Below are positions 23,185-32,860 of a stretch of DNA of 64,000 nucleotides, piece by piece; within the stretch, counting starts at the first letter, position 1; every line of letters starts with the position of its first letter. The stretch lies in IMG/VR virus record IMGVR_UViG_3300028887_000096, positions 19,562-83,561 of that record; one strand, 5' to 3'. Below the pieces are notes generated by a model. It was not told the DNA's origin and made no database searches. It worked only from the letters and a program-made list of their open reading frames with translations. Source of the DNA: a virus. Its lineage: Duplodnaviria > Heunggongvirae > Uroviricota > Caudoviricetes. Position numbers and translations under genes: made by a program.

Positions 23185-23386
23185 CGCGTGCACGGCTGCC
23201 GCCAAGAAGGCCGCGATGCACGGAAACATCGTCCGTGCCCTCTACGTGCTTGTGTTCGCCGTGTTCCTGTTCAGCACCGCGCGTGTAATCCGCCAGATTT
23301 GGATCAACGGGGGTACGACGACCCTCGTGAAGGTAAGCAACGGGGAAGCCGGGGAAGTCCGCGCACAGTCCGAAGAAACCAAGTAA
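23171..23386 (+). CDS. Small membrane protein (start uncertain)
   Basis: TM segment ALYVLVFAVFLFS. Alternative start at 23129. Confidence 0.4.
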   Translation, partial: EMQLSACTAAAKKAAMHGNIVRALYVLVFAVFLFSTARVIRQIWINGGTTTLVKVSNGEAGEVRAQSEETK

Positions 23387-23396
23387 GGGGTTGCCG

Positions 23397-24971
23397 ATGA
23401 CCAACCGTAACGACGTGATTTTCGACATGAAGTCGATGCTGAAACGCTTCAACATCGACTCCGACCAGTGGGTGGGAAAGAATTTCAAGGAAAAGCTGGC
23501 CTACCTCAAGAAGCGCATGCGCTCCAATGACAAGATTGAGCTCGCCGAAAGCGGGTCTAAGCTGCTTGACGCGGTGTTCTACACCCTGCGCAACGCGTCC
23601 GAGAGCCGCATCGCCCACAAGTATATCGGCCTCGCACAGACCGCGTTCGACCTGTTCCGCATCAACTTCATCGTCAAGAACGCTTTCGTCGCCGAACAGT
23701 ACGAGTATCGCGGACGCTTCGACGCGATGGCCCGGGTGATTGGCGAGGACAACGACTGCGGCCTTACCGTCGCCGAGGTGAAGACCTCCGGCGACATGTG
23801 TCGCTATCTCCTCAACATGAGCCAGGCCGACCAGGAAAAATACGACATCCGCTTCAAGAAGATCAAGAACCTTCTCCGCGACGACGATGACGAGGACGAG
23901 GGCTACCGGCTCCGTTCCGCCGTCCTGTTCAGCCATGCCGGCCACAACTTCGTCATGCAGCTGGAAAACTACGCCGCGAGCAAGGCCGACCTCGGGAAGG
24001 ACCATGAAGACTACATGGAAAGCAGTTACGCCGATGTCCGCGTCGCCATGCGCAACGAGGACTATGACGAGGAAGTCATTACGGATGCCGTCCATACCCT
24101 GTATACCGCATATCTCGGCAACGTTGACCTTTCCAAGTACATGTTCGAGATGGACAACGTGTTCTTCTCGAAGTTCAAGCGCGAAATCGTCGATTTCGAC
24201 GTGTGCAACCTGGACGTGGCCCGCATGCGCAGGGCAATCTCGAAGACCCTGGAACACAACAAGAGCCGCAGCTTCCTCGTAGAGGGCGAGCCGGGCGTGG
24301 GCAAGACCATGTCCATCGAGAAGGTGCTCGAAGGCGTGCCGCAATACCCGGTGTTCTGGGTCCCGCTCGAAGCCATTCAGCAGGCCTGCATCGACCAGAC
24401 TTTCGAGACGCTCGCCCGCATCGACAAGTCGATTATCGTGTTCGACGACATCGACGGCATCGACATGAGCGAGAAGAACGAGTATGCCACCGACTTCATG
24501 GGTTATCTCGACGAGCTCCGCGAGACATCCAGCGGCCATATCATCATTATCATCGTGAACGAGCCGCAGAAGCTCCACCACATGTTCCGTTCGCGTCCGG
24601 GCCGTATCGACGAGGTGATCGTCGTGACTGCGCCGAAGACCGCGGAAGACGTGTTCGATGTCATCAAGCAGCGCTTCCGCCACGAGAACGTGGCGATGCC
24701 GAAATGGGCGTCGCTCGGCAACAAGCAGTTCAGGAAGGCCTGCGAGGACCTCGCGAAGAAGGGTATTACCCAGGCATACATCACCGGCATCATTTCCGAC
24801 CTGGTGACGTTCTATGACGGGGACCATTCGTTCAAGAACTTCAAGGACTCTGTCCGGTCCGCTATGGAAAGCCGGGACAACAGCATGCTCGTCGCGGGAA
24901 GTGATGGCCGTTTGTGCAGTGCCCAAACGGTCCAACAGACCGCCACCGCAAGTCAGGACGCGGGGGCCTAA
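23397..24971 (+). CDS. AAA+ ATPase
   Basis: Walker A GEPGVGKT, Walker B IIVFDDIDG, SRPGRIDE arginine-finger region. N-terminal domain of about 300 aa is unknown. Confidence 0.75.
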   Translation: MTNRNDVIFDMKSMLKRFNIDSDQWVGKNFKEKLAYLKKRMRSNDKIELAESGSKLLDAVFYTLRNASESRIAHKYIGLAQTAFDLFRINFIVKNAFVAEQYEYRGRFDAMARVIGEDNDCGLTVAEVKTSGDMCRYLLNMSQADQEKYDIRFKKIKNLLRDDDDEDEGYRLRSAVLFSHAGHNFVMQLENYAASKADLGKDHEDYMESSYADVRVAMRNEDYDEEVITDAVHTLYTAYLGNVDLSKYMFEMDNVFFSKFKREIVDFDVCNLDVARMRRAISKTLEHNKSRSFLVEGEPGVGKTMSIEKVLEGVPQYPVFWVPLEAIQQACIDQTFETLARIDKSIIVFDDIDGIDMSEKNEYATDFMGYLDELRETSSGHIIIIIVNEPQKLHHMFRSRPGRIDEVIVVTAPKTAEDVFDVIKQRFRHENVAMPKWASLGNKQFRKACEDLAKKGITQAYITGIISDLVTFYDGDHSFKNFKDSVRSAMESRDNSMLVAGSDGRLCSAQTVQQTATASQDAGA

Positions 24972-25098
24972 AATCCCCGATTTTGTGCACATTTGTGCAC
25001 TAACCTTGGCACCGTTTTTATTATAAACAATGACTACCCGCCGACGGAAACGGTCCTCCCGCACCGCCGGCCCAACTTCAACCTAAAGGATTCCTACA

Positions 25099-27668
25099 TG
25101 GAAGAATTACAGGACACGAAAATGTCGGAGCGCTCGTTCTTGAAGCAGGTCAAGAAGAAGGATGGCCCCCGGCAGAAGTTTGATCCCCTTAAAATCGAAC
25201 GCTGCATCACCCACGCACTCAATGACGCGAAGTGCACGCTCCCCCAGGAAAAAATCGAGGAAATGACCGGTGATGTGGTTGATTTGCTGTATGACTTGAA
25301 GCAGAAGTGCGTGAGCAATGAATCGGTTGCCATCGCTGTAAAGAAAGTTTTACGCGAAGTCAGCATGCCCGCCTATGATGCCTATGTCATCTTCCGCAAC
25401 AACCGCGACCGCGAACGCACCCTCCAGTCCCCCCTTATCAAGACCGTCCGCGAAATCAAGCATGCCGAGTTGCAGAGCTCCAATACCCTCCGCGACAACG
25501 CGAACGAGGCTGGCGGCACCCCGGCCGGCATGTTCGGCAAGATCGCCGGCGAAACCAACAAGATGTATAACCTGCTCGACAATGTGAGCAGGAAGTATGC
25601 GGAAGAACACACCAACGGCTACCTCCACATCCACGACCTCAACATGTATGACCTGACCTTCAACTGCCTCTTTGCCCCGGTAGGCAAGAAGTTGAGGACA
25701 GGCTTCGATTCCGGTACCGGCTTCCAGCGTCCGGCACAGACCATCCAGAGTGCTGCCGCGCTTACCGCCGTGATTCTCCAGTTGCAGTCCAACCAGCAAT
25801 ACGGCGGCATCGCCTGCGACAACTTCGATTTCGAGCTCGCCCCGTTCGTGGACCGTTCCTTCCGCAGGAACCTTGCCATCGAACTGAATGCGATGGCCGA
25901 ATATCGGGAAGAGGATGAGAACCTCGCCGAATATCGCACGCTCCCCGAAGAGTCCGACGACATCGAGAAGACTGTCAAGCGTATCGCGAAGGTGCTCGGC
26001 AAGGCCAATGTGTCCATGAACCAGCCGAGGAAGAAGCTCTATTGCAGTTTCCCGAAGAAGTGCGTCGACCGCGCATGGCTCTACACCGATGCCGATACGC
26101 ATCAGGCGATGGAGGCCCTTGTCCACAACTTGAACTCCTTGCAGTCTCGCTCTGGAAACCAAGTTCCGTTCTCGTCGTTGAACTTTGGCCTTGATACTTC
26201 CAACTGCGGACGAATGGTCAGCAAGAACCTCATGCGTGCCCAGTATGAGGGCATGGGCGACGGCCTGACCGCCATCTTCCCGATCCTCATCTTCAAGCTC
26301 ATGAAGGGTTATACCAAGAACCCGACCGACCCGAACTACGACCTTTACGAACAGGCCGTCGAATGTCTGGCCCGCCGTTTCTACCCGAACTTCGTGTCGG
26401 TGGACAGCACCTTCAACAAGCCCTATGTGAAGTACCGGACCAAGGAAATCGAACTCGCCGATGGGTTGCGCAACATCAAGCTCCGCGGAAAGGATGAGGG
26501 TTTCGCTGAATACCACGGGATCATCGAACGCTCCGAATGCCCGGAATATGAATACGAGGTGGAGCCGGGCGAATACTGGGAAATCGTCGAATACGATGAA
26601 AAGAAGCTCTCCCTTCGCAAGCTGATCGAGAACACCACCATTGCGACGATGGGATGCCGCACCCGTGTCATCGGCAATGTCAACGGCCCGGAACAGACTA
26701 CCGGCCGTGGCAACTTTGCCTTCCATACGATGAACCTCCCGCGCCTTGCCATCGAATCCCATATCGAGAAGGACAGTACCGACGAACGCATCGCACGCTT
26801 CTACGAGAAGCTCGACGCATTGCTCGACGATGCCAAGGAAAGCCTTGTTGAACGCTTTAACCTCGTGTGCCAGAAGACCTACGAGCGCTATCCGTTCACG
26901 ATGCAGGAAGGTTTGTACCTCACTTCCGATGACAAGAAGCATGAACTGTCCGATACCATCGCCGAGGTGATGAAGCAGTCCACGCTCTCCATCGGCTATA
27001 TCGGCATCGCCGAGACGATCAACCTCCTTACCGGCAAGATTTACGGTGTCGATCATGAGGTGGATGGACTTGCGGTGGCCATCGTGAAGCACATCCGTGA
27101 CTTCTGCGACGCTACCCAGAAGAAGACCCACATGAACTGGTCCTGCTTCGCCACCCCGGCAGAAGCGGTCGCGGGCCGGTTCGCCACCATCGACGCCAAC
27201 AAGTTCGCCGACAACAAGAAACTTGCCGATGTGAACCTTGAACGCATCTTCGGAAAGGGCTACTACACCAATTCCCACATGATGGACTTCTCTCTCGATG
27301 TCTCCCTCGACGAGAAGATCAAGGTGGAAGCCCCGTTCCATGCCCTCACCAATGCCGGGCATATATTCTACTACAAGTTGAACGGCGACTTGACGAAGAA
27401 CATCCCGGCAGTGAAGGCTGCCATCGACGCCATGTATGACGGCAACCTTGGGTACTTCACCGTCACGATGGATTCGGACGACTGTCTCAAGTGCGGCTAC
27501 CATGGCATCATCGACAATGTATGCCCGAAGTGCGGCTGCAAGGATGAACGCTATTTCGTCCGTGTCAGGCGAATTACCGGATATTTAACCGGTTCACCGC
27601 GGAAGAGTATTCTGGATGCTTGGTGCGATGGAAAGAAGAAGGAGCTCATCGATCGGCACAATATCTAG
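25099..27668 (+). CDS. nrdD: Anaerobic ribonucleoside-triphosphate reductase NrdD
   Basis: Class III RNR features. C-terminal CPKCGC zinc ribbon and glycyl-radical motif RRITGYLTG. Start reassigned to MEELQDTK, because the ORF-track start is an upstream extension. Confidence 0.8.
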
Positions 27669-27688
27669 CGTATTTTTACTTAAAATAA

Positions 27689-27720
27689 GTGCAGCCGTCG
27701 AACGGCTGCACTTTTTGTTT
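27689..27720 (+). terminator. Rho-independent terminator after nrdD
   Basis: GTGCAGCCG-TCGAA-CGGCTGCAC followed by TTTTTGTTT. Confidence 0.7.
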
Positions 27721-27735
27721 GGTTTCTAAACTGTA

Positions 27736-27750
27736 TTTTGCTATATTTCC
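27736..27750 (+). promoter_or_regulatory. Promoter motif TTTTGCTATATTTCC
   Basis: Upstream of the inserted zinc-finger gene. Confidence 0.55.
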
Positions 27751-27781
27751 ATGAGAAGATAATTGATTTTCGGGGATACCT

Positions 27782-29692
27782 ATGGAGCTCAATTTCATTT
27801 GTAAAATTTGTAATAAGCCGTTTGGCAAAACCGGGTTGACTAATCACATCCAGCGCACCCATAAAATGTCATATAAGGAGTATTATGACACTTTCATTGA
27901 TGGAAGCGAGCACCTGTGTCCCTATTGCGGCAAAGAGTGTGGGTTTGTTAGCCATTATGGTTATTACGAAACTTGTTGTGATCCCACATGTGTCAGAAAG
28001 GCGCAGCACCGGACAATGTATGCTCGATATGGTAAGGCCTGTCGCCACCCAGACAAAATTAAGGCAAAACCAATTATTGACTATCCATACCATTGCGAAA
28101 TATGTGGTCAAGGCACAAAGAATTTGCCGATGCTGAATAGGCATCTGAAAAAATATCACCCTGATGTAGATATTGAAAACTACTATAATACATATCTGGG
28201 AGTTAAACCACAAGTATGTGAGGTATGCGGTGGCCGAGCAAAGTGGTTGGGAACGCATTACCATAATGTTTGTGGATGCCCGGAGTGTACTAGCGTATTG
28301 CGTGGCAAGAATAATGCAATGAATAACCCGGTCTACCGCAAAAAAGCGAGGGATGCGCTAATTGCATTGCCGGACGAAAAAAAGCGGGCAATTCGCGAAA
28401 AGGTGGAGCAAACTTGCTTGGCACGCTTTGGGTATCGGCATAATTGGAGTTCCCCCGAACTGCGTGAGGCTGGCCAGTACGCCACATGCAAGGCACTATA
28501 TGGCGATCGGAATTACCATAATGTTGCGCAAATGCAGAATACTTGCACAGAACGGTTTGGCGTTAGGTCGTTTTCACAGACTGTTTCGTTTCAATCAAAA
28601 ATGTGGCATAAATTCAAGGTGGGTGAAATTACATTTGACTCGTCGTATGAGTATGCACTATATAATTTCTTGAATGCCGCTAAATTGCCATTTATTTATC
28701 ATCCGAAGGAATCTATTCGTTATGAATATGCCGGTAAAGAACACATGTTCTTTCCAGATTTCAAAATAAATGGCCATTTTTACGAGGTTAAGGGCGAGCA
28801 CCTGTATAAATATATGCAGACCCCGAACACTAAGGAGCATGCGAAACTGGAGTGCATTTTAGCAAACAATATCACACTTATAACAAAATGCGATGTATTT
28901 GCGTTTATTGATGCCGTATTTGGAAAATCGTTGAGTATTGATGCTATCGTTGAGCAATGCTTGCATACCGAGTTCCCGGGCAATGCGAAATGGCCTGCAT
29001 CACATCCCATTTGGGATTGCTTTGTTCCCGGGCATACTGATCCCCGCACTGCATGGGCAGACCCGGTGTTGGTTCGTAAAGGTGTTCTTAATCTAGTAAA
29101 GACATTGAACGACGCTCTAATTTCTGGAAAATATCCGGCATTCTGCACAAGATATATCAAATCTCTGCTGAGTGGAAATTACTTTGATAAGGTCCTGGAT
29201 AGGTTTACTATTGCAAAGATCGCGCCGAAAGTAACTGCATTACACGAAACCGAACTGTTGCGAATTATTGAGGAATCCGGTGTAGATTTAAGCCCCGGTG
29301 TGTATTGCCCAATGGCTGGGTTTGGCGGCATAGTTCGCGGTGTCAGACGGTGGTTTGAAACTCGCGGTATGCGCGGAGATATTGAGGCCTATGACATCAA
29401 TGACCGGTTCTGTAATTGGTATGGGTGGACTAGGCGTGATGTTTTGGCACAGGTGGTGCACACGAACAAGGTGGTTGTTGTTTGCCCTCCGTTTGGAAAG
29501 CAGTATGAGCACTGGAAGGGAACACCGGACGAAATGTCGGATATTACATTTAAACAATGGGTTTCCTTGATTAAGGAGCATGTCATTGCACCGAATTACA
29601 TATTTATTGGCCCAGAAGTCGATGACGGCAAGAACCGTTGTGGCCTATTTAAACGAAAGGTTGGAATTTCATTATATAAGGATGGTATATGA
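27782..29692 (+). CDS. Multi-zinc-finger protein with C-terminal DNA-methyltransferase-like motifs; low-GC insertion between nrdD and nrdG
   Basis: C2H2-like units (CKICNKPFGKTGLTNHIQRTH, CEICGQGTKNLPMLNRHLKKYH). C-terminal MAGFGGIVRG (motif I-like) and VVVCPPFG (motif IV-like). GC is about 40%, against about 60% in the flanks. Own promoter motif and terminator. Confidence 0.6.
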   Translation: MELNFICKICNKPFGKTGLTNHIQRTHKMSYKEYYDTFIDGSEHLCPYCGKECGFVSHYGYYETCCDPTCVRKAQHRTMYARYGKACRHPDKIKAKPIIDYPYHCEICGQGTKNLPMLNRHLKKYHPDVDIENYYNTYLGVKPQVCEVCGGRAKWLGTHYHNVCGCPECTSVLRGKNNAMNNPVYRKKARDALIALPDEKKRAIREKVEQTCLARFGYRHNWSSPELREAGQYATCKALYGDRNYHNVAQMQNTCTERFGVRSFSQTVSFQSKMWHKFKVGEITFDSSYEYALYNFLNAAKLPFIYHPKESIRYEYAGKEHMFFPDFKINGHFYEVKGEHLYKYMQTPNTKEHAKLECILANNITLITKCDVFAFIDAVFGKSLSIDAIVEQCLHTEFPGNAKWPASHPIWDCFVPGHTDPRTAWADPVLVRKGVLNLVKTLNDALISGKYPAFCTRYIKSLLSGNYFDKVLDRFTIAKIAPKVTALHETELLRIIEESGVDLSPGVYCPMAGFGGIVRGVRRWFETRGMRGDIEAYDINDRFCNWYGWTRRDVLAQVVHTNKVVVVCPPFGKQYEHWKGTPDEMSDITFKQWVSLIKEHVIAPNYIFIGPEVDDGKNRCGLFKRKVGISLYKDGI

Positions 29693-30222
29693 ACTTTTCA
29701 AAGATTGATCCGATGTCCATAGTGGACGGCGAAGGCTGCCGCGTGACGCTGTTCGTGTCAGGCTGCCGGAACCATTGTCCCGGGTGCTTCAACGAGGCTA
29801 CGTGGGACTTCTCATACGGCAAGGAGTTCACCGAAATCGAGGCTAACGAGATTATCGAGGCATGCCGGAAGCCCTATATCGCGGGCATTACAGTCCTCGG
29901 CGGCGAACCGATGGAGGAGGAGAACCAGCCGGCCGTGCTCGAACTTCTCAGGAAGTTCAGGGCGGAGCTCCCGGAGAAGAACATCTGGCTCTATACCGGC
30001 TACGTGATGGAGCGCGACCTCTATCCGGGCGGAAGGAAGCATGTGCCTGGCGTTACCGGGGAAATCCTGAAACTGGCCGACGTGCTCGTTGACGGCCCGT
30101 TCATCCAACAAAAACGGGACCTCGCACTGAGGTTCCGTGGAAGTTCCAACCAGCGCATCCTCCGCAAGAAGGATGGCCGCTTTGTGGAAGACGCTACCAG
30201 TTCGATTCCGACTCGAGTCTGA
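29689..30222 (+). CDS. nrdG: Anaerobic RNR activating protein NrdG (radical SAM)
   Basis: GCRNHCPGC cluster. Small glycyl-radical activase architecture. Confidence 0.8.
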   Translation: MNFSKIDPMSIVDGEGCRVTLFVSGCRNHCPGCFNEATWDFSYGKEFTEIEANEIIEACRKPYIAGITVLGGEPMEEENQPAVLELLRKFRAELPEKNIWLYTGYVMERDLYPGGRKHVPGVTGEILKLADVLVDGPFIQQKRDLALRFRGSSNQRILRKKDGRFVEDATSSIPTRV

Positions 30223-30962: not shown

Positions 30963-31241
30963 ATGCGAGCCGACAAAGTGTTATTCTATCTAGTCAAGCG
31001 TAACTCGGACGGGCTATACCTGGTGGATAGCGGCACGTGCACGTTCGGTAAGTTTTACATGGGGCATACCGCGTCTTCGCGGACACGGGGCGACGCAGAC
31101 CTTCTCGTCGACCGTATCATGAAGCGCAGGGGGATGAACCGTGACGAACTTTCCGTGGTTGCTGTCGGGGAGCTAGACACTTCAACAAAAGAGGACAATC
31201 AATGTCTATCCCACTCATCTGTATCATTGCCGGAGCAGTAA
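30963..31241 (+). CDS. Hypothetical small protein
   Basis: Promoter motif ends 5 nt before the ATG. Overlaps the flotillin gene start. Confidence 0.45.
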   Translation: MRADKVLFYLVKRNSDGLYLVDSGTCTFGKFYMGHTASSRTRGDADLLVDRIMKRRGMNRDELSVVAVGELDTSTKEDNQCLSHSSVSLPEQ

Positions 31242-32860
31242 TCCTGGCAATCATTTTCATGGTCGGCTACGTCAAGGCACCGCCTGACAAGGCATTTATC
31301 ATTTCCGGTTGGCGTGAAAAACCGAAGGTCCTCGTGGGCCGCGCCGGCTTCCGCATCCCGTTCATCGAACGACTTGACATCGTTGACTTGAAGATCATGA
31401 CCATCCTCATCAACAAGACCGATCCGGTCCCGACCATCGACTGCATGTTCGTCAAGGTTGATGCGGTTGCTACGGCAAAGGTTGATGCGACCGCGGAACA
31501 TATTGCAATCGCCGCACAGAACTTCCTTAACATGGAATCCGGCGATACGAGCAAGATTAGTGACAAGTCCGAATTTTCGTCCAGGAAGGTCAATAGCAGC
31601 ATCGCGAGCATGATTGACAATATTTTGGATGGTTCGCTGCGTGAAGTTATCGGCCAGATCAAGATTGAGGACCTCGTCAGCAAGCGCGATGAAATCACCC
31701 GCCTCGTGAACGCAAGTGCAACCAAGGACCTCCAAAAGCTCGGCATCCGTCTCGATACCTTCAACATCCAGAAGTTCGACGACGAATACATCGACGGCGA
31801 AGGTGTCAAGCACAGCATGATCAAGGAACTCGGTACGGAACGCGCCACGGCCATTCTTAAGACAGCCGCCAACGCAAGGGCAGCTGCGGATGCGGACATC
31901 CGTATCGCAAAGGCCGAAGCCGACAAGCGTGCAAACGATGTCGAAGTCGAAAACGGTCTTGCCATTGCCAAGCGCCAGAACGACCTCGAAGTCAAGAAGC
32001 ACGAACTCGCCCAGATTGAACAGACTAAGAAGGCCGATGCAGACACCGCTTACGAAATCAAGCTGAAACAGCAGCAGAAGCTCATCAACATCGCCGACGC
32101 GGAAGCGAACATCGCGGCGGAAGAAAAGAATATCGAGCTCAGCGAACGCAAGGTGTCTGTCCGCGAACGTGAACTCCAGGCCGAAATCGAAAAGAAGGCC
32201 GAAGCCAACTACAAGGCACAGATCCACGATTCCGACGCTGCCTACTATAAGGCACAGAAGGACGCCGATGCCGAACTTTACAAGGCAAAGACGGACGCCG
32301 AAGCCGACCTTTATCGCCGCTCCAAGGATGCAGACGCAGGCCTCGTCCAGCGCCAGAAGTCCGCTGAAGGTGACCTCTACGACCAGGAACAGAAGGCAAA
32401 GGGTATCACCGCAATCGCAGACGCAAACCTCCACAAGGCAACCAACGAAGCCAACGCAATCAAGGCAACCGGTCTCGCCGAAGCTGACGCAATCAAGGCC
32501 AAGGGTCTTGCCGAAGCCGAAGCAATCGACAAGAAGGCCGACGCCATGAACAAGTATGGCGAAGCCCCGATTACCGAAATGCGCATCAAGGCCACGGAAA
32601 AGTTCTTCGAACAGCTCCCGGCAATGACCGCTGCAGCCGCAAAGCCGATGGAAAAGATTGGCAACATCACCATCTACGACGGCGGTCCGGCAAAGCTCAC
32701 CGAAAGCGTCACCAAGACCATCAAGCAGGTCTCGGACGGCCTTACGGATTCGCTCGGGTTCAGCCTTCCCAATGCGGTCAACAGCCTTCTCGGCGGTGCT
32801 CTTGCCGGCAAGATGATTGGCAAGGGCATGCAGGAGGCCCAGCAGGACCAGGCCCAGTAG
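31202..32860 (+). CDS. Flotillin-like SPFH/band-7 protein
   Basis: N-terminal TM, SPFH-like region, long Ala/Glu/Lys coiled-coil repeats (AEAD..KAKTDAEADLY) typical of FloT/YqiK. Confidence 0.7.
   Translation: MSIPLICIIAGAVILAIIFMVGYVKAPPDKAFIISGWREKPKVLVGRAGFRIPFIERLDIVDLKIMTILINKTDPVPTIDCMFVKVDAVATAKVDATAEHIAIAAQNFLNMESGDTSKISDKSEFSSRKVNSSIASMIDNILDGSLREVIGQIKIEDLVSKRDEITRLVNASATKDLQKLGIRLDTFNIQKFDDEYIDGEGVKHSMIKELGTERATAILKTAANARAAADADIRIAKAEADKRANDVEVENGLAIAKRQNDLEVKKHELAQIEQTKKADADTAYEIKLKQQQKLINIADAEANIAAEEKNIELSERKVSVRERELQAEIEKKAEANYKAQIHDSDAAYYKAQKDADAELYKAKTDAEADLYRRSKDADAGLVQRQKSAEGDLYDQEQKAKGITAIADANLHKATNEANAIKATGLAEADAIKAKGLAEAEAIDKKADAMNKYGEAPITEMRIKATEKFFEQLPAMTAAAAKPMEKIGNITIYDGGPAKLTESVTKTIKQVSDGLTDSLGFSLPNAVNSLLGGALAGKMIGKGMQEAQQDQAQ

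Follow-up and report, generated by a model that had tools for sequence, protein, structure and literature searches.

Restriction-endonuclease-like folds are used in homing by I-Ssp6803I and I-Bth0305I (PD-(D/E)xK, EDxHD), which are intron-encoded and small and have neither zinc fingers nor methyltransferase domains. In restriction enzymes of Type IIG/IIC (MmeI, Eco57I, and BcgI type), a PD-(D/E)xK nuclease is located N-terminal to an amino-methyltransferase of the gamma class with an NPPY motif; these proteins of 900–1,000 aa carry a C-terminal target-recognition domain and function in bacterial defence. To our knowledge, no characterised homing endonuclease has a conserved, enzyme-like methyltransferase domain. 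The homing genes of phage T4 include mobC at the nrdG/nrdD junction, segD between genes 23 and 24, segB in the tRNA region, and the td-intron gene I-TevI (PMC2988022).

Here we describe a gene, referred to as X, located between nrdD (upstream) and nrdG (downstream) in a stretch of 64,000 nt, hereafter the window. Its nuclease, sporadic presence, shared sites, mosaicism, and composition together indicate that X is probably a free-standing selfish gene of the homing-endonuclease type, residing at the nrdD–nrdG site of a large T4-like phage.

Position, composition, and signals of the inserted gene

The nrdD gene, encoding anaerobic ribonucleotide reductase, spans 25098–27668 on the plus strand and matches PF13597 (9.4e-149), ATP-cone, Gly_radical, and TIGR02487. 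A preliminary description of this DNA had recognised the gene but started it at 25099, which is out of frame. The nrdG gene for the activating enzyme was found where it had been placed, at 29689–30222 on the plus strand (TIGR02491, 6.4e-51). The two genes had been called normally adjacent, which applies to 10 of the 17 related IMG/VR loci. X itself occupies 27782–29692 (plus strand) and encodes 636 aa, with a predicted zinc-finger, PD-(D/E)xK nuclease, and methyltransferase-like fusion. The ORF had rightly been noticed but was assigned to 27689–29692, a span whose start would include the upstream terminator and promoter motif.

In the GC profile of the window, values across the X ORF were 0.39–0.48, compared to 0.55–0.58 in the flanks. 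The GC and GC3 contents of X were 0.437 and 0.440, versus 0.550 and 0.762 for nrdD, so that a low-GC gene does separate nrdD from nrdG and differs in composition from its neighbours, as first proposed. Across the X family, the composition is foreign in high-GC hosts and native-like in low-GC hosts.

A terminator of its own and a copied phage promoter motif had also been ascribed to X, and both were observed. An intrinsic-terminator-like hairpin at 27687–27721 (plus strand) has a 12-bp stem at 27687–27713 with a 3-nt loop, followed by a T-run. All insert-bearing loci have a hairpin at the same position; that of the window arrives with the insert and supplants the native nrdD terminator of empty alleles, whose spacer (GGCCACCCGGAAGGGTGGCC plus a T-run) is present in loci L015 and L016 and supplanted in the window and L001. 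The promoter-like copy, TTTTGCTATATTTCC, lies at 27736–27750 (plus strand), 32 nt 5ʹ of the ATG of X, and belongs to a repeated phage motif, TTTTGCTATATTTC(A/C), that occurs 18 times in the window where 0.98 occurrences would be expected (none of 100 shuffles reached 18). The motif likewise occurs upstream of the X copy in L001 and elsewhere in related loci. At the 3ʹ end, the TGA of X and the ATG of nrdG overlap as ATGA.

X is under strong purifying selection: its dN/dS against the L001 copy was 0.074, with values of about 0.07 in all modules, equal to that of nrdD. Between deep lineages, X was 48%–52% identical and NrdD 52%–64%. A dN/dS of about 0.07 and an X divergence like that of NrdD would fit a long-resident useful gene.

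Filled and empty alleles at the nrdD–nrdG junction

Close relatives with 90%–99% identical NrdD have an empty nrdD–nrdG junction. In three lineage pairs, indels of about 2 kb fall precisely in the gap that separates the stop codon of nrdD from the start codon of nrdG: 1,984 bp replace 26 bp in L001 compared to L015 (flanks 95% identical), an indel of 2,010 bp separates L019 and L026 (flanks 95% and 90%), and one of 2,006 bp separates L004 and L025. The synteny comparison suggested for this junction thus gave relatives that are either filled or empty, with clean boundaries. The empty state is ancestral, given that the native terminator is found in both L015 and L016, two loci with only ~79% identity between their nrdD genes.

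The same junction is occupied in L022 and L028 by nuclease-only relatives with the Pfam domain DUF7487, again with empty counterparts. Conversely, members with the same C-terminal domain as X are found directly 3ʹ of gp23 (L008–L011) and of the thymidylate synthase gene (L012), and DUF7487 genes of cultured phages lie after gp23 (Vibrio phage Va1) and within a tRNA cluster (Escherichia phage PhaxI). These sites parallel those of mobC, segD, segB, and I-TevI in T4.

These contexts bear on whether X might serve the anaerobic ribonucleotide reductase as a dedicated accessory factor, for example a modifier or regulator of NrdD/NrdG, inherited vertically with nrdD. X directly follows nrdD in lineages down to 52% NrdD identity and is here translationally coupled to nrdG, as such a factor might be. 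However, X is absent from phages with 98%–99% identical NrdD, no nrdG follows X in L005–L007 and L013, relatives with the same C-domain adjoin gp23 or the thymidylate synthase gene, and the domains of X appear to be DNA-directed. We regard an accessory role as extremely improbable and rejected it because empty alleles exist and because family members also occur at gp23 and td.

In L005 and L007, where nrdD is split, a search with Rfam gave no match to a group I intron. Comparison of filled and empty alleles revealed no consistent immunising polymorphism at the 3ʹ end of nrdD: the window and L001 have GAT/AAT where L015 and L016 have GAC/AAC, and AATATC also occurs in other empty loci. The IMG/VR pattern scan with X returned zero matches, a scan that is insensitive, since L017–L019, fetched by their NrdD, contain X. 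When the 5-kb region was compared to GenBank phages by megablast, no match was obtained.

Mosaicism around the insert

Sliding identity and informative sites delimited a donor-type (L001/L015-like) tract of ~4.75 kb at 25061–29810, containing the whole of nrdD and of the insert as well as ~120 nt from the start of nrdG, in an L016-like backbone. Sharp informative-site switches place the left breakpoint at 25060–25072 and the right one at 29808–29811, the right edge being 120 nt beyond the insert. Identity between the window and L016 is 94%–96% on the upstream side of the tract and 89%–99% on the downstream side, but only 74%–87% across nrdD; compared to L001 and L015, the pattern is the opposite. 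At the protein level, NrdD of the window shares 99.3% identity with its counterpart in L015, which has no insert, and 82% with the one in L016. Since nrdD of the window is closer to X-less L015 than to L001, the actual donor is unsampled.

A second case was provided by L018 and L019, in which X is 97% identical, while NrdD and NrdG are 85% and 76% identical; the DNA identity falls sharply at the right edge of X and declines gradually into nrdD. Such tracts are consistent with co-conversion, though ordinary homologous recombination could also produce them. The clean indels in near-identical relatives and the recombinant tract agree with the original view of a mobile insertion with foreign composition. 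The term domesticated, used for it at the same time, is not supported: purifying selection on X is strong, but signs of recent movement between lineages are seen as well.

Zinc module, repeats, and nuclease core

The N-terminal zinc module (aa 1–175; 27782–28306, plus strand) is a duplicated unit of a C2H2 finger and a C4 knuckle, giving four predicted zinc sites. The ligands are C7/C10/H22/H27 and C105/C108/H121/H126 for the C2H2 pattern and C46/C49/C65/C70 and C146/C149/C164/C169 for C4, and all 16 Cys/His residues are invariant in 22 homologs. The pattern C-x2-C-x12-H-x3-5-H fits aa 105–126 and nearly fits aa 7–27, where the spacer has 11 residues. Several C2H2-like fingers had been noted in this protein, which the invariant ligands corroborate, while the score with Pfam zf-C2H2 (PF00096) was 18.5 bits, under the cutoff of 25.2, and zinc-finger matches in the PDB were weak. 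The module presumably binds DNA and sets the target; in other family members it is swapped for Zn-ribbons or NUMOD3. It is followed by three ~25–30-aa repeats of the form K..T.L.KYGV. (aa ~200–270; 28379–28591, plus strand), which form the N-terminal part of DUF7487, are visible in the homolog alignment, and number more than 10 in homolog P0039. These may be modular DNA-contact repeats.

DUF7487 (PF24308) matched aa 202–358 of X, scoring 38.4 bits where the gathering threshold is 27, and most X homologs are pre-annotated with this family. Within it, a putative PD-(D/E)xK core at aa ~283–340 (28628–28801, plus strand) reads FDS-x2-E290 ... P325-D326-F327 ... E335-x-K337. A profile of X aligned with T7 endonuclease I (1m0d) over a 62-residue core (E 7.7e-4), with E20/D55/E65/K67 of the latter in register with E290/D326/E335/K337. 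Among 22 homologs, D286, S287, E290, P325, D326, F327, and K337 are invariant, and position 335 is E or D. X further matched phrog_3339 "homing endonuclease" (6e-8) and phrog_15137 "endonuclease" (4e-6). A subgroup of the family (P0037–P0057) has instead a Vsr-like core, CDFYIP…VEIQGxWTHG. A single-sequence AlphaFold model of whole X had a pLDDT of 35, and the nuclease and zinc modules are characterised from sequence only. From the profile alignment and the conserved residues, the middle region of X is predicted to be a T7-endonuclease-I-like PD-(D/E)xK nuclease with intact catalytic residues, which supports the earlier label homing-endonuclease-like. The nuclease domain itself, at about aa 200–360, had been overlooked.

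C-terminal methyltransferase-like domain

The helical sub-domain at aa 385–490 (28934–29251, plus strand) contains invariant FPG..KW....HPIW and SP..AW blocks and terminates in motif X (RFTIAKIAPKVTAL). An AF2 model gave it mostly helices with pLDDT 92–98, the fold comparison yielded no separate match for it, and it is possibly the target-recognition region. The rest of the chain (aa 491–636; 29252–29689, plus strand) is a Rossmann-type, class-I methyltransferase-like domain with the characteristics of that fold and with motif I (YCPMAGFGG, 29303–29329), motif II (EAYDIN, 29384–29401), and motif IV (VCPPF, 29480–29494), all on the plus strand; the protein ends ~65 aa past motif IV. P510, G513-F514-G515-G516, D538, and C568-P569-P570-F571 are invariant among homologs, so the GFGG and PPF motifs pointed out in the preliminary description do lie inside a domain of methyltransferase fold. 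Before the motif I proline, X has Cys509; some members carry Leu or Asn at this position, and distant members have Asp. Motif IV reads CPPF in X and TCPPY, TSPPW/V, TSTPY, or TCSPY in relatives; its first position is always Cys or Ser, resembling the N4C motif SPPY/F without being canonical.

X has no match to PF01555 at the curated threshold, which only the distant homologs P0118, P0116, P0119, and P0121 pass. A family profile of the C-domain that includes distant members reached the DNA methyltransferase 8s9m at 5e-5, whereas PDB searches with the single X protein or its full-length profile gave no match for the C-domain. The attribute methyltransferase-like is borne out at the level of fold and profile. 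On these profile relations, the C-domain appears to be related to PF01555 without being a member, and we consider it a divergent, circularly permuted module resembling DNA amino-methyltransferases.

Conservation within X is highest in the C-domain. This domain defines a family of roughly 67 clusters among 1.84 billion representatives and matched no record in a collection of 50,697 phage records. Along with the methyltransferase fold and motifs, this conservation is what would favour an orphan DNA methyltransferase, targeted by zinc fingers and acting in anti-restriction or gene regulation, in which the nuclease-like region is inactive or structural. Yet E290, D326, E/D335, and K337 are conserved family-wide, the nuclease segment has a dN/dS of 0.09, fusions of the C-domain recur with two different types of PD-(D/E)xK nuclease (T7 endonuclease-I-like and Vsr-like), and the same sites hold nuclease-only paralogs. 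An orphan methyltransferase is therefore most improbable. The initial choice between a nuclease and a methyltransferase falls away, as a nuclease and a methyltransferase-like domain are joined in one chain, and for the same reason "orphan methyltransferase" is not an apt name.

The presence of both domains raises another alternative, in which X is a single-chain weapon like a restriction–modification system (an analogue of Type IIG/IIC) that benefits the phage: the methyltransferase would mark phage DNA at a short motif, the nuclease would destroy unmarked competitor or host DNA, and the patchy distribution and mosaic flanks would be by-products of recombination rather than of site-specific homing. 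Type IIG enzymes have the nuclease N-terminal to the methyltransferase, the order seen in X; purifying selection is strong on all modules, and the 47%–53% identity of the C-domain between members adjoining different genes suggests one common short specificity. On the other hand, members are always directly 3ʹ of conserved genes, which are classical homing sites, the long DNA-binding N-termini vary (zinc fingers, Zn-ribbons, or NUMOD3), nuclease-only relatives occupy the same junction, the identity islands centre on X, and no PADLOC defence model or NCBIfam restriction–modification model matches X. We consider such a weapon unlikely, though less so than an orphan methyltransferase.

Proposed homing by X

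Conserved nuclease residues, precise presence or absence, and an intergenic site beside conserved genes were all found for X, as is expected of a free-standing homing endonuclease gene (HEG), and its signatures match those used for putative HEGs in other phages (PMC10055350). We infer cleavage, a target site, homing, and methyl transfer by X as follows. In a mixed infection, the X protein would use its zinc fingers and DUF7487 repeats to recognise a long site in a relative lacking X, at the nrdD/nrdG junction or close to it; the T7-endonuclease-I-like PD-(D/E)xK centre would cut, and the X-bearing genome would serve as the repair template. Repair would copy X together with variable lengths of the nrdD and nrdG flanks (co-conversion). 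The cassette would come with a terminator and, in the lineage of the window, also with a phage promoter, and the stop/start overlap would keep nrdG expressed. The C-domain would most likely methylate a short motif that coincides with the cut position or adjoins it, thereby protecting the carrier genome; possibly, its role is purely DNA-binding or base-flipping.

More tentatively, X and its family of ~67 clusters might be homing endonucleases that bear their own DNA methyltransferase and thus immunise the target copy of the carrier, a proposal we hold to be possible and well short of probable. If it is true, the zinc-finger and repeat module would direct nuclease and methyltransferase alike to one long site, and conserved genes would be open to invasion with no need for a pre-existing resistant polymorphism. 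X would then represent a zinc-finger nuclease of natural origin that mechanistically links homing endonucleases to restriction–modification systems.

Comparison with known systems

Like X, the T4 gene mobC and SegH are free-standing ORFs at the nrdG/nrdD junction of T4-related phages with a patchy distribution among relatives, and T4 HEGs are associated with similar regulatory signals, namely a terminator and a stop/start overlap (PMC2988022). The gene order at the X locus, nrdD–X–nrdG, differs from that in T4. While mobC is an HNH and SegH a GIY-YIG enzyme, X is predicted to combine a PD-(D/E)xK core with zinc fingers of the C2H2 and C4 kinds and with a domain resembling methyltransferases. 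Sequence and profile searches of the PDB gave no match of X to I-Ssp6803I or I-Bth0305I.

T7 endonuclease I (1m0d, 2pfj, 1fzr), whose catalytic core aligns with X, is a junction-resolving PD-(D/E)xK nuclease; it is a domain-swapped dimer of 149 aa that reads DNA structure rather than sequence, whereas in X the core lies within a multidomain protein of 636 aa. X-like repeats together with a PD-(D/E)xK core are also found in gp269 of Va1 ("HJR family nuclease") and gp006 of PhaxI ("endonuclease"). Such DUF7487 phage proteins are 23%–28% identical to X over aa ~100–378 and, unlike X, are nuclease-only proteins of 210–300 aa. Pfam gives DUF7487 no described function, and our literature search found no mention of this family; a search on natural fusions of HEGs and methyltransferases retrieved nothing relevant.

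With the beta class of DNA amino-methyltransferases (PF01555 N6_N4_Mtase; the cytosine-N4 methyltransferase 8s9m; M.MboIIA, 1g60), the X family shares the class-I fold, the motif X/I block (…KIAP…DPFAGFGG), the motif II Asp, a motif IV resembling (S/D)PPY, and E/D-x-W and W…Y-I-F blocks after motif IV. The blocks run I-II-III-IV in X and IV…I in the beta class, that is, they are circularly permuted. X further differs from this class in its CPPF motif IV, in a Cys in place of the acidic residue of motif I, and in its ~150 aa plus a helical N-terminal extension. From Type IIG/IIC enzymes, X is set apart by its N-terminal zinc fingers, CPPF instead of NPPY, the lack of a C-terminal target-recognition domain, and its location in a phage at homing-type sites rather than in a bacterial defence context.

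Overall, the insertion site and behaviour of X are ordinary for homing genes, while its protein architecture appears to be undescribed. Unusual are the core of the T7-endonuclease-I type and the strongly conserved, permuted DNA-methyltransferase-like domain, which no Pfam model recognises; a further unusual feature is the C2H2 zinc fingers, through which X parallels, in nature, the zinc-finger nucleases made by engineering. Should the methyltransferase prove active, X would be an example of a selfish nuclease bearing its own immunity and would also provide a function for DUF7487, a question made directly testable by the near-identical filled and empty alleles.

Insertion between nrdD and nrdG

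The low-GC gene (X) was a 636-aa ORF (27782–29692, + strand) flanked by bona fide nrdD (25098–27668, +; PF13597, 9e-149; TIGR02487) and nrdG (29689–30222, +; TIGR02491, 6e-51), as in the preliminary description, whose nrdD start of 25099 was one base off frame. The TGA of X shares bases with the nrdG ATG in an ATGA overlap. Upstream of the ORF, the terminator and phage promoter motif reported earlier were both present, as a hairpin with a 12-bp stem and T-run (27687–27713) and a copy of the 15-mer TTTTGCTATATTTCC (27736–27750). This was one of 18 matches in the window, where about one was expected and none of 100 shuffles attained 18.

The 18 sites of the motif, TTTTGCTATATTTCA, lay on both strands (for example 3675, 5978, 14058, 20499, 27736, 30945, 37505, 39121, 46738, and 50603), and it also occurred in the related phage loci L001, L015, L016, L024, L027, L028, L030, and L031. 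It is presumably the phage's own promoter, possibly of late type. The phage ORF at 31202–32860 (+) encodes 552 aa; its counterpart in L001 has the Pfam domains Band_7 and Flotillin, unusual for a phage, and is followed by a DNA methylase gene (PF01555).

IMG/VR loci were collected via an NrdD anchor and gene content was mapped by tblastn. The nrdD-nrdG junction was empty in 10 loci, contained X in three (L017–L019), and contained a shorter nuclease-only DUF7487 gene in four (L022, L023, L028, and L029). Filled and empty pairs were near-identical apart from the insert, and this precise presence or absence supported the proposed mobile insertion. Between L001 (filled) and L015 (empty), with flanks 95% identical, 26 bp of native spacer and terminator were replaced by 1,984 bp. 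L019 and L026 (empty of X), with NrdD 98% identical, differed by a 2,010-bp indel exactly from the nrdD stop to the nrdG start, and L004 and L025 by a 2,006-bp indel. Similar pairs existed for the nuclease-only gene (L022 versus L021/L020; L028 versus L026). The native terminator was common to L015 and L016, whose nrdD genes are only ~79% identical, which makes the empty junction the ancestral state.

The last ~35 nt of the X ORF (window 29654–29688; L001 7873–7907) are similar to the native terminator in its 3ʹ half (L015 3468–3499; CGGAAGGTTGGCATT versus CGGAAGGGTGGCCTT), and BLAST homology resumes there. The similarity could be due to chance or to a microhomology where X first inserted.

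Composition, selection and mosaic tracts

The low GC content was confirmed against the neighbours, at 0.39–0.48 across X and 0.55–0.58 in both flanks, with GC3 of 0.44 in X and 0.76 in nrdD. In hosts of 53–56% GC, GC3 was 0.36–0.45 for X and 0.67–0.78 for nrdD, whereas in hosts of 29–35% GC, X was near host composition or somewhat lower. This argues that X originated in low-GC phages and came horizontally to the window lineage. Comparison of X in the window with X in L001 gave a dN/dS of 0.074 overall (zinc, nuclease, and methyltransferase-like parts, 0.079, 0.092, and 0.061, respectively), and that of nrdD was 0.074. Because of these low values, X is predicted to be a functional gene, not a decaying one.

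The identity between the window and the empty L016 was 94–96% at 23317–25000 and 89–99% from 29750 on, but only 74–87% across nrdD; the pattern against L001/L015 was the opposite. Informative sites confined the left switch to 25060–25072, some 30 nt upstream of the nrdD ATG, and the right switch to 29808–29811, roughly 120 nt inside nrdG, indicating that a ~4.75-kb tract (containing nrdD, X, and the 5ʹ end of nrdG) was placed in a different backbone. Independently of this tract, L018 and L019 shared 97% identity in X, 85% in NrdD, and 76% in NrdG. In their DNA, X formed an island of 95–98% identity, falling abruptly to 60–69% at its right edge and declining gradually into nrdD on the left.

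The window nrdD was nearer to insert-free L015 (dS 0.09) than to insert-bearing L001 (dS 0.20), and dS between the X genes of the window and L001 was 0.27, so either the true donor is unsampled or the tract itself is mosaic. The NrdG of L026 was 99% identical to that of L028 but only 74% to that of L019, despite the 98% NrdD match. With this discordance, the nrdD/nrdG junction looks like a group-wide recombination breakpoint, in the window and beyond it.

Zinc sites and nuclease

Alignment A1 comprised 22 full-length X homologs of 46–95% identity. The C2H2-like fingers described earlier corresponded to four invariant zinc-ligand sets, two of C2H2 pattern (C7/C10/H22/H27 and C105/C108/H121/H126) and two of C4 pattern (C46/C49/C65/C70 and C146/C149/C164/C169), which appear to form a duplicated finger-plus-knuckle unit; the Pfam zf-C2H2 score was under the model's threshold. 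Residues 202–358 matched Pfam DUF7487 (38.4 bits; threshold 27) and the PHROG families 'homing endonuclease' (6e-8) and 'endonuclease' (4e-6), and the family profile matched T7 endonuclease I (E 7.7e-4). The motifs FRSGLE/FDSSYE, PDF/PDF, and VETKG/YEVKG aligned in register, so that catalytic E20/D55/E65/K67 of T7 endonuclease I match E290/D326/E335/K337 of X, invariant in A1 except for E or D at 335. The homing-endonuclease-like reading thus gained a nuclease domain that had gone unnoticed.

The family member P0039 (742 aa) has more than 10 tandem repeats of ~23 aa (KVKSTNIEKYGVDSYSKTDEYKN) ahead of the nuclease, an expanded DUF7487 repeat that looks like a modular array and might read DNA one repeat at a time. 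In P0030 (459 aa, 222,553-bp contig), the zinc and nuclease parts are intact, and the divergent C-terminal domain breaks off ~70 residues in; decaying or truncated copies are expected in a homing-gene life cycle, and P0030 may be one.

A permuted methyltransferase-like domain

The C-terminal 250 residues (C-domain) were the best conserved part of X in A1, with the blocks RFTIAKIAPKVTAL, YCPMAGFGGIV, IEAYDIN, VCPPFGKxYEHWxGTPDEMSDI, and YIFIGPE. Single-sequence structure prediction of X was unusable (pLDDT 35); the C-domain model from a 45-sequence alignment reached pLDDT 89.9 and pTM 0.83. Foldseek against the PDB returned almost exclusively class-I methyltransferases (E about 1e-3), including Type I M subunits, M.BseCI, and KsgA, so the SAM-binding-like GFGG and PPF motifs noted earlier lie in conserved blocks of a methyltransferase fold. 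The best named matches among viral models were DNA N4-cytosine and other DNA methylases. An exhaustive phmmer search found C-domain carriers in only 67 clusters among 1.84 billion representatives.

Over the homologous block, the distant members P0118 (41 bits), P0116, P0119, and P0121 passed the PF01555 (N6_N4_Mtase) threshold, with the textbook motifs DPFAGFGG, Y.G.DIN, and TCPPY. The profile including them (A4) matched the DNA cytosine-N4 methyltransferase structure 8s9m (5e-5) and M.MboIIA (2.4e-3), with the motif I–II and motif IV blocks in swapped order, indicating that the C-domain is probably related to the beta-class DNA amino-methyltransferases by circular permutation. The window protein has CPPF as its motif IV and a Cys at the acidic position of motif I. 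In A4, the positions invariant across the family fell on motifs X, I, II, and IV and on the E-x-W after motif IV, a pattern that an active enzyme would show; a non-catalytic, DNA-binding role is also possible.

Genomic positions of family members

All X homologs came from metagenomic phage contigs; no close relative of the region was found among deposited phages, and no C-domain match among 50,697 phage records. Each of the full-length homologs with 96%, 52%, 50%, and 48% identity was located immediately 3ʹ of nrdD. C-domains behind other nuclease modules directly followed gp23, the major capsid gene (P0056 and P0041), or lay 3ʹ of thymidylate synthase (P0035), and cultured-phage DUF7487 genes lay after gp23 in Va1 and in a tRNA cluster in PhaxI.

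Directly after gp23, L009–L011 carry a tandem pair of DUF7487-type nuclease genes (L009: 4374–6059 and 6001–8049), one weakly matching REase_MTES_1575 and the other bearing the C-domain, which suggests homing genes stacked at one hotspot. In a low-GC lineage, nrdD is split into two ORFs (L005 and L006, 2231–5951; L007, 2979–5951). An extra 218-aa ORF with a weak, below-threshold HNH match (E 7e-4) lies between the halves in L005 and L006, and is absent from L007. Rfam detected no group I intron at the split, which may reflect a second endonuclease invasion of nrdD.

Discussion

We consider it likely that X is a mobile homing-type nuclease gene. On criteria taken from the literature (PMC2988022, PMC10055350), we found a nuclease intact by sequence, precise presence/absence among close relatives, conserved-gene neighbours, insert-versus-flank identity discordance, and co-conversion-like tracts, and the behaviour of X matches that of a free-standing homing endonuclease gene. 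All descriptive elements of the preliminary description proved real, and its interpretation was borne out in part.

The C-domain, 47–53% identical, occurs at various target genes, joined to differing DNA-binding N-termini and to two types of nuclease, which makes it unlikely as a long-site specificity element. Most economically, it would methylate a short motif where cleavage takes place and so shield the carrier genome. A restriction-modification-like exclusion role is possible, but X matched no defence or restriction-modification model in PADLOC or NCBIfam.

To our knowledge, no characterised homing endonuclease joins zinc fingers and DUF7487 repeats to a T7-endonuclease-I-like core and a methyltransferase-like domain within a single polypeptide; X is a new architecture in a well-known kind of selfish gene. 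The homing genes of T4 occupy a niche like that of the X family: mobC separates nrdG from nrdD, segD lies between genes 23 and 24, segB is found among the tRNA genes, and td contains I-TevI (PMC2988022).
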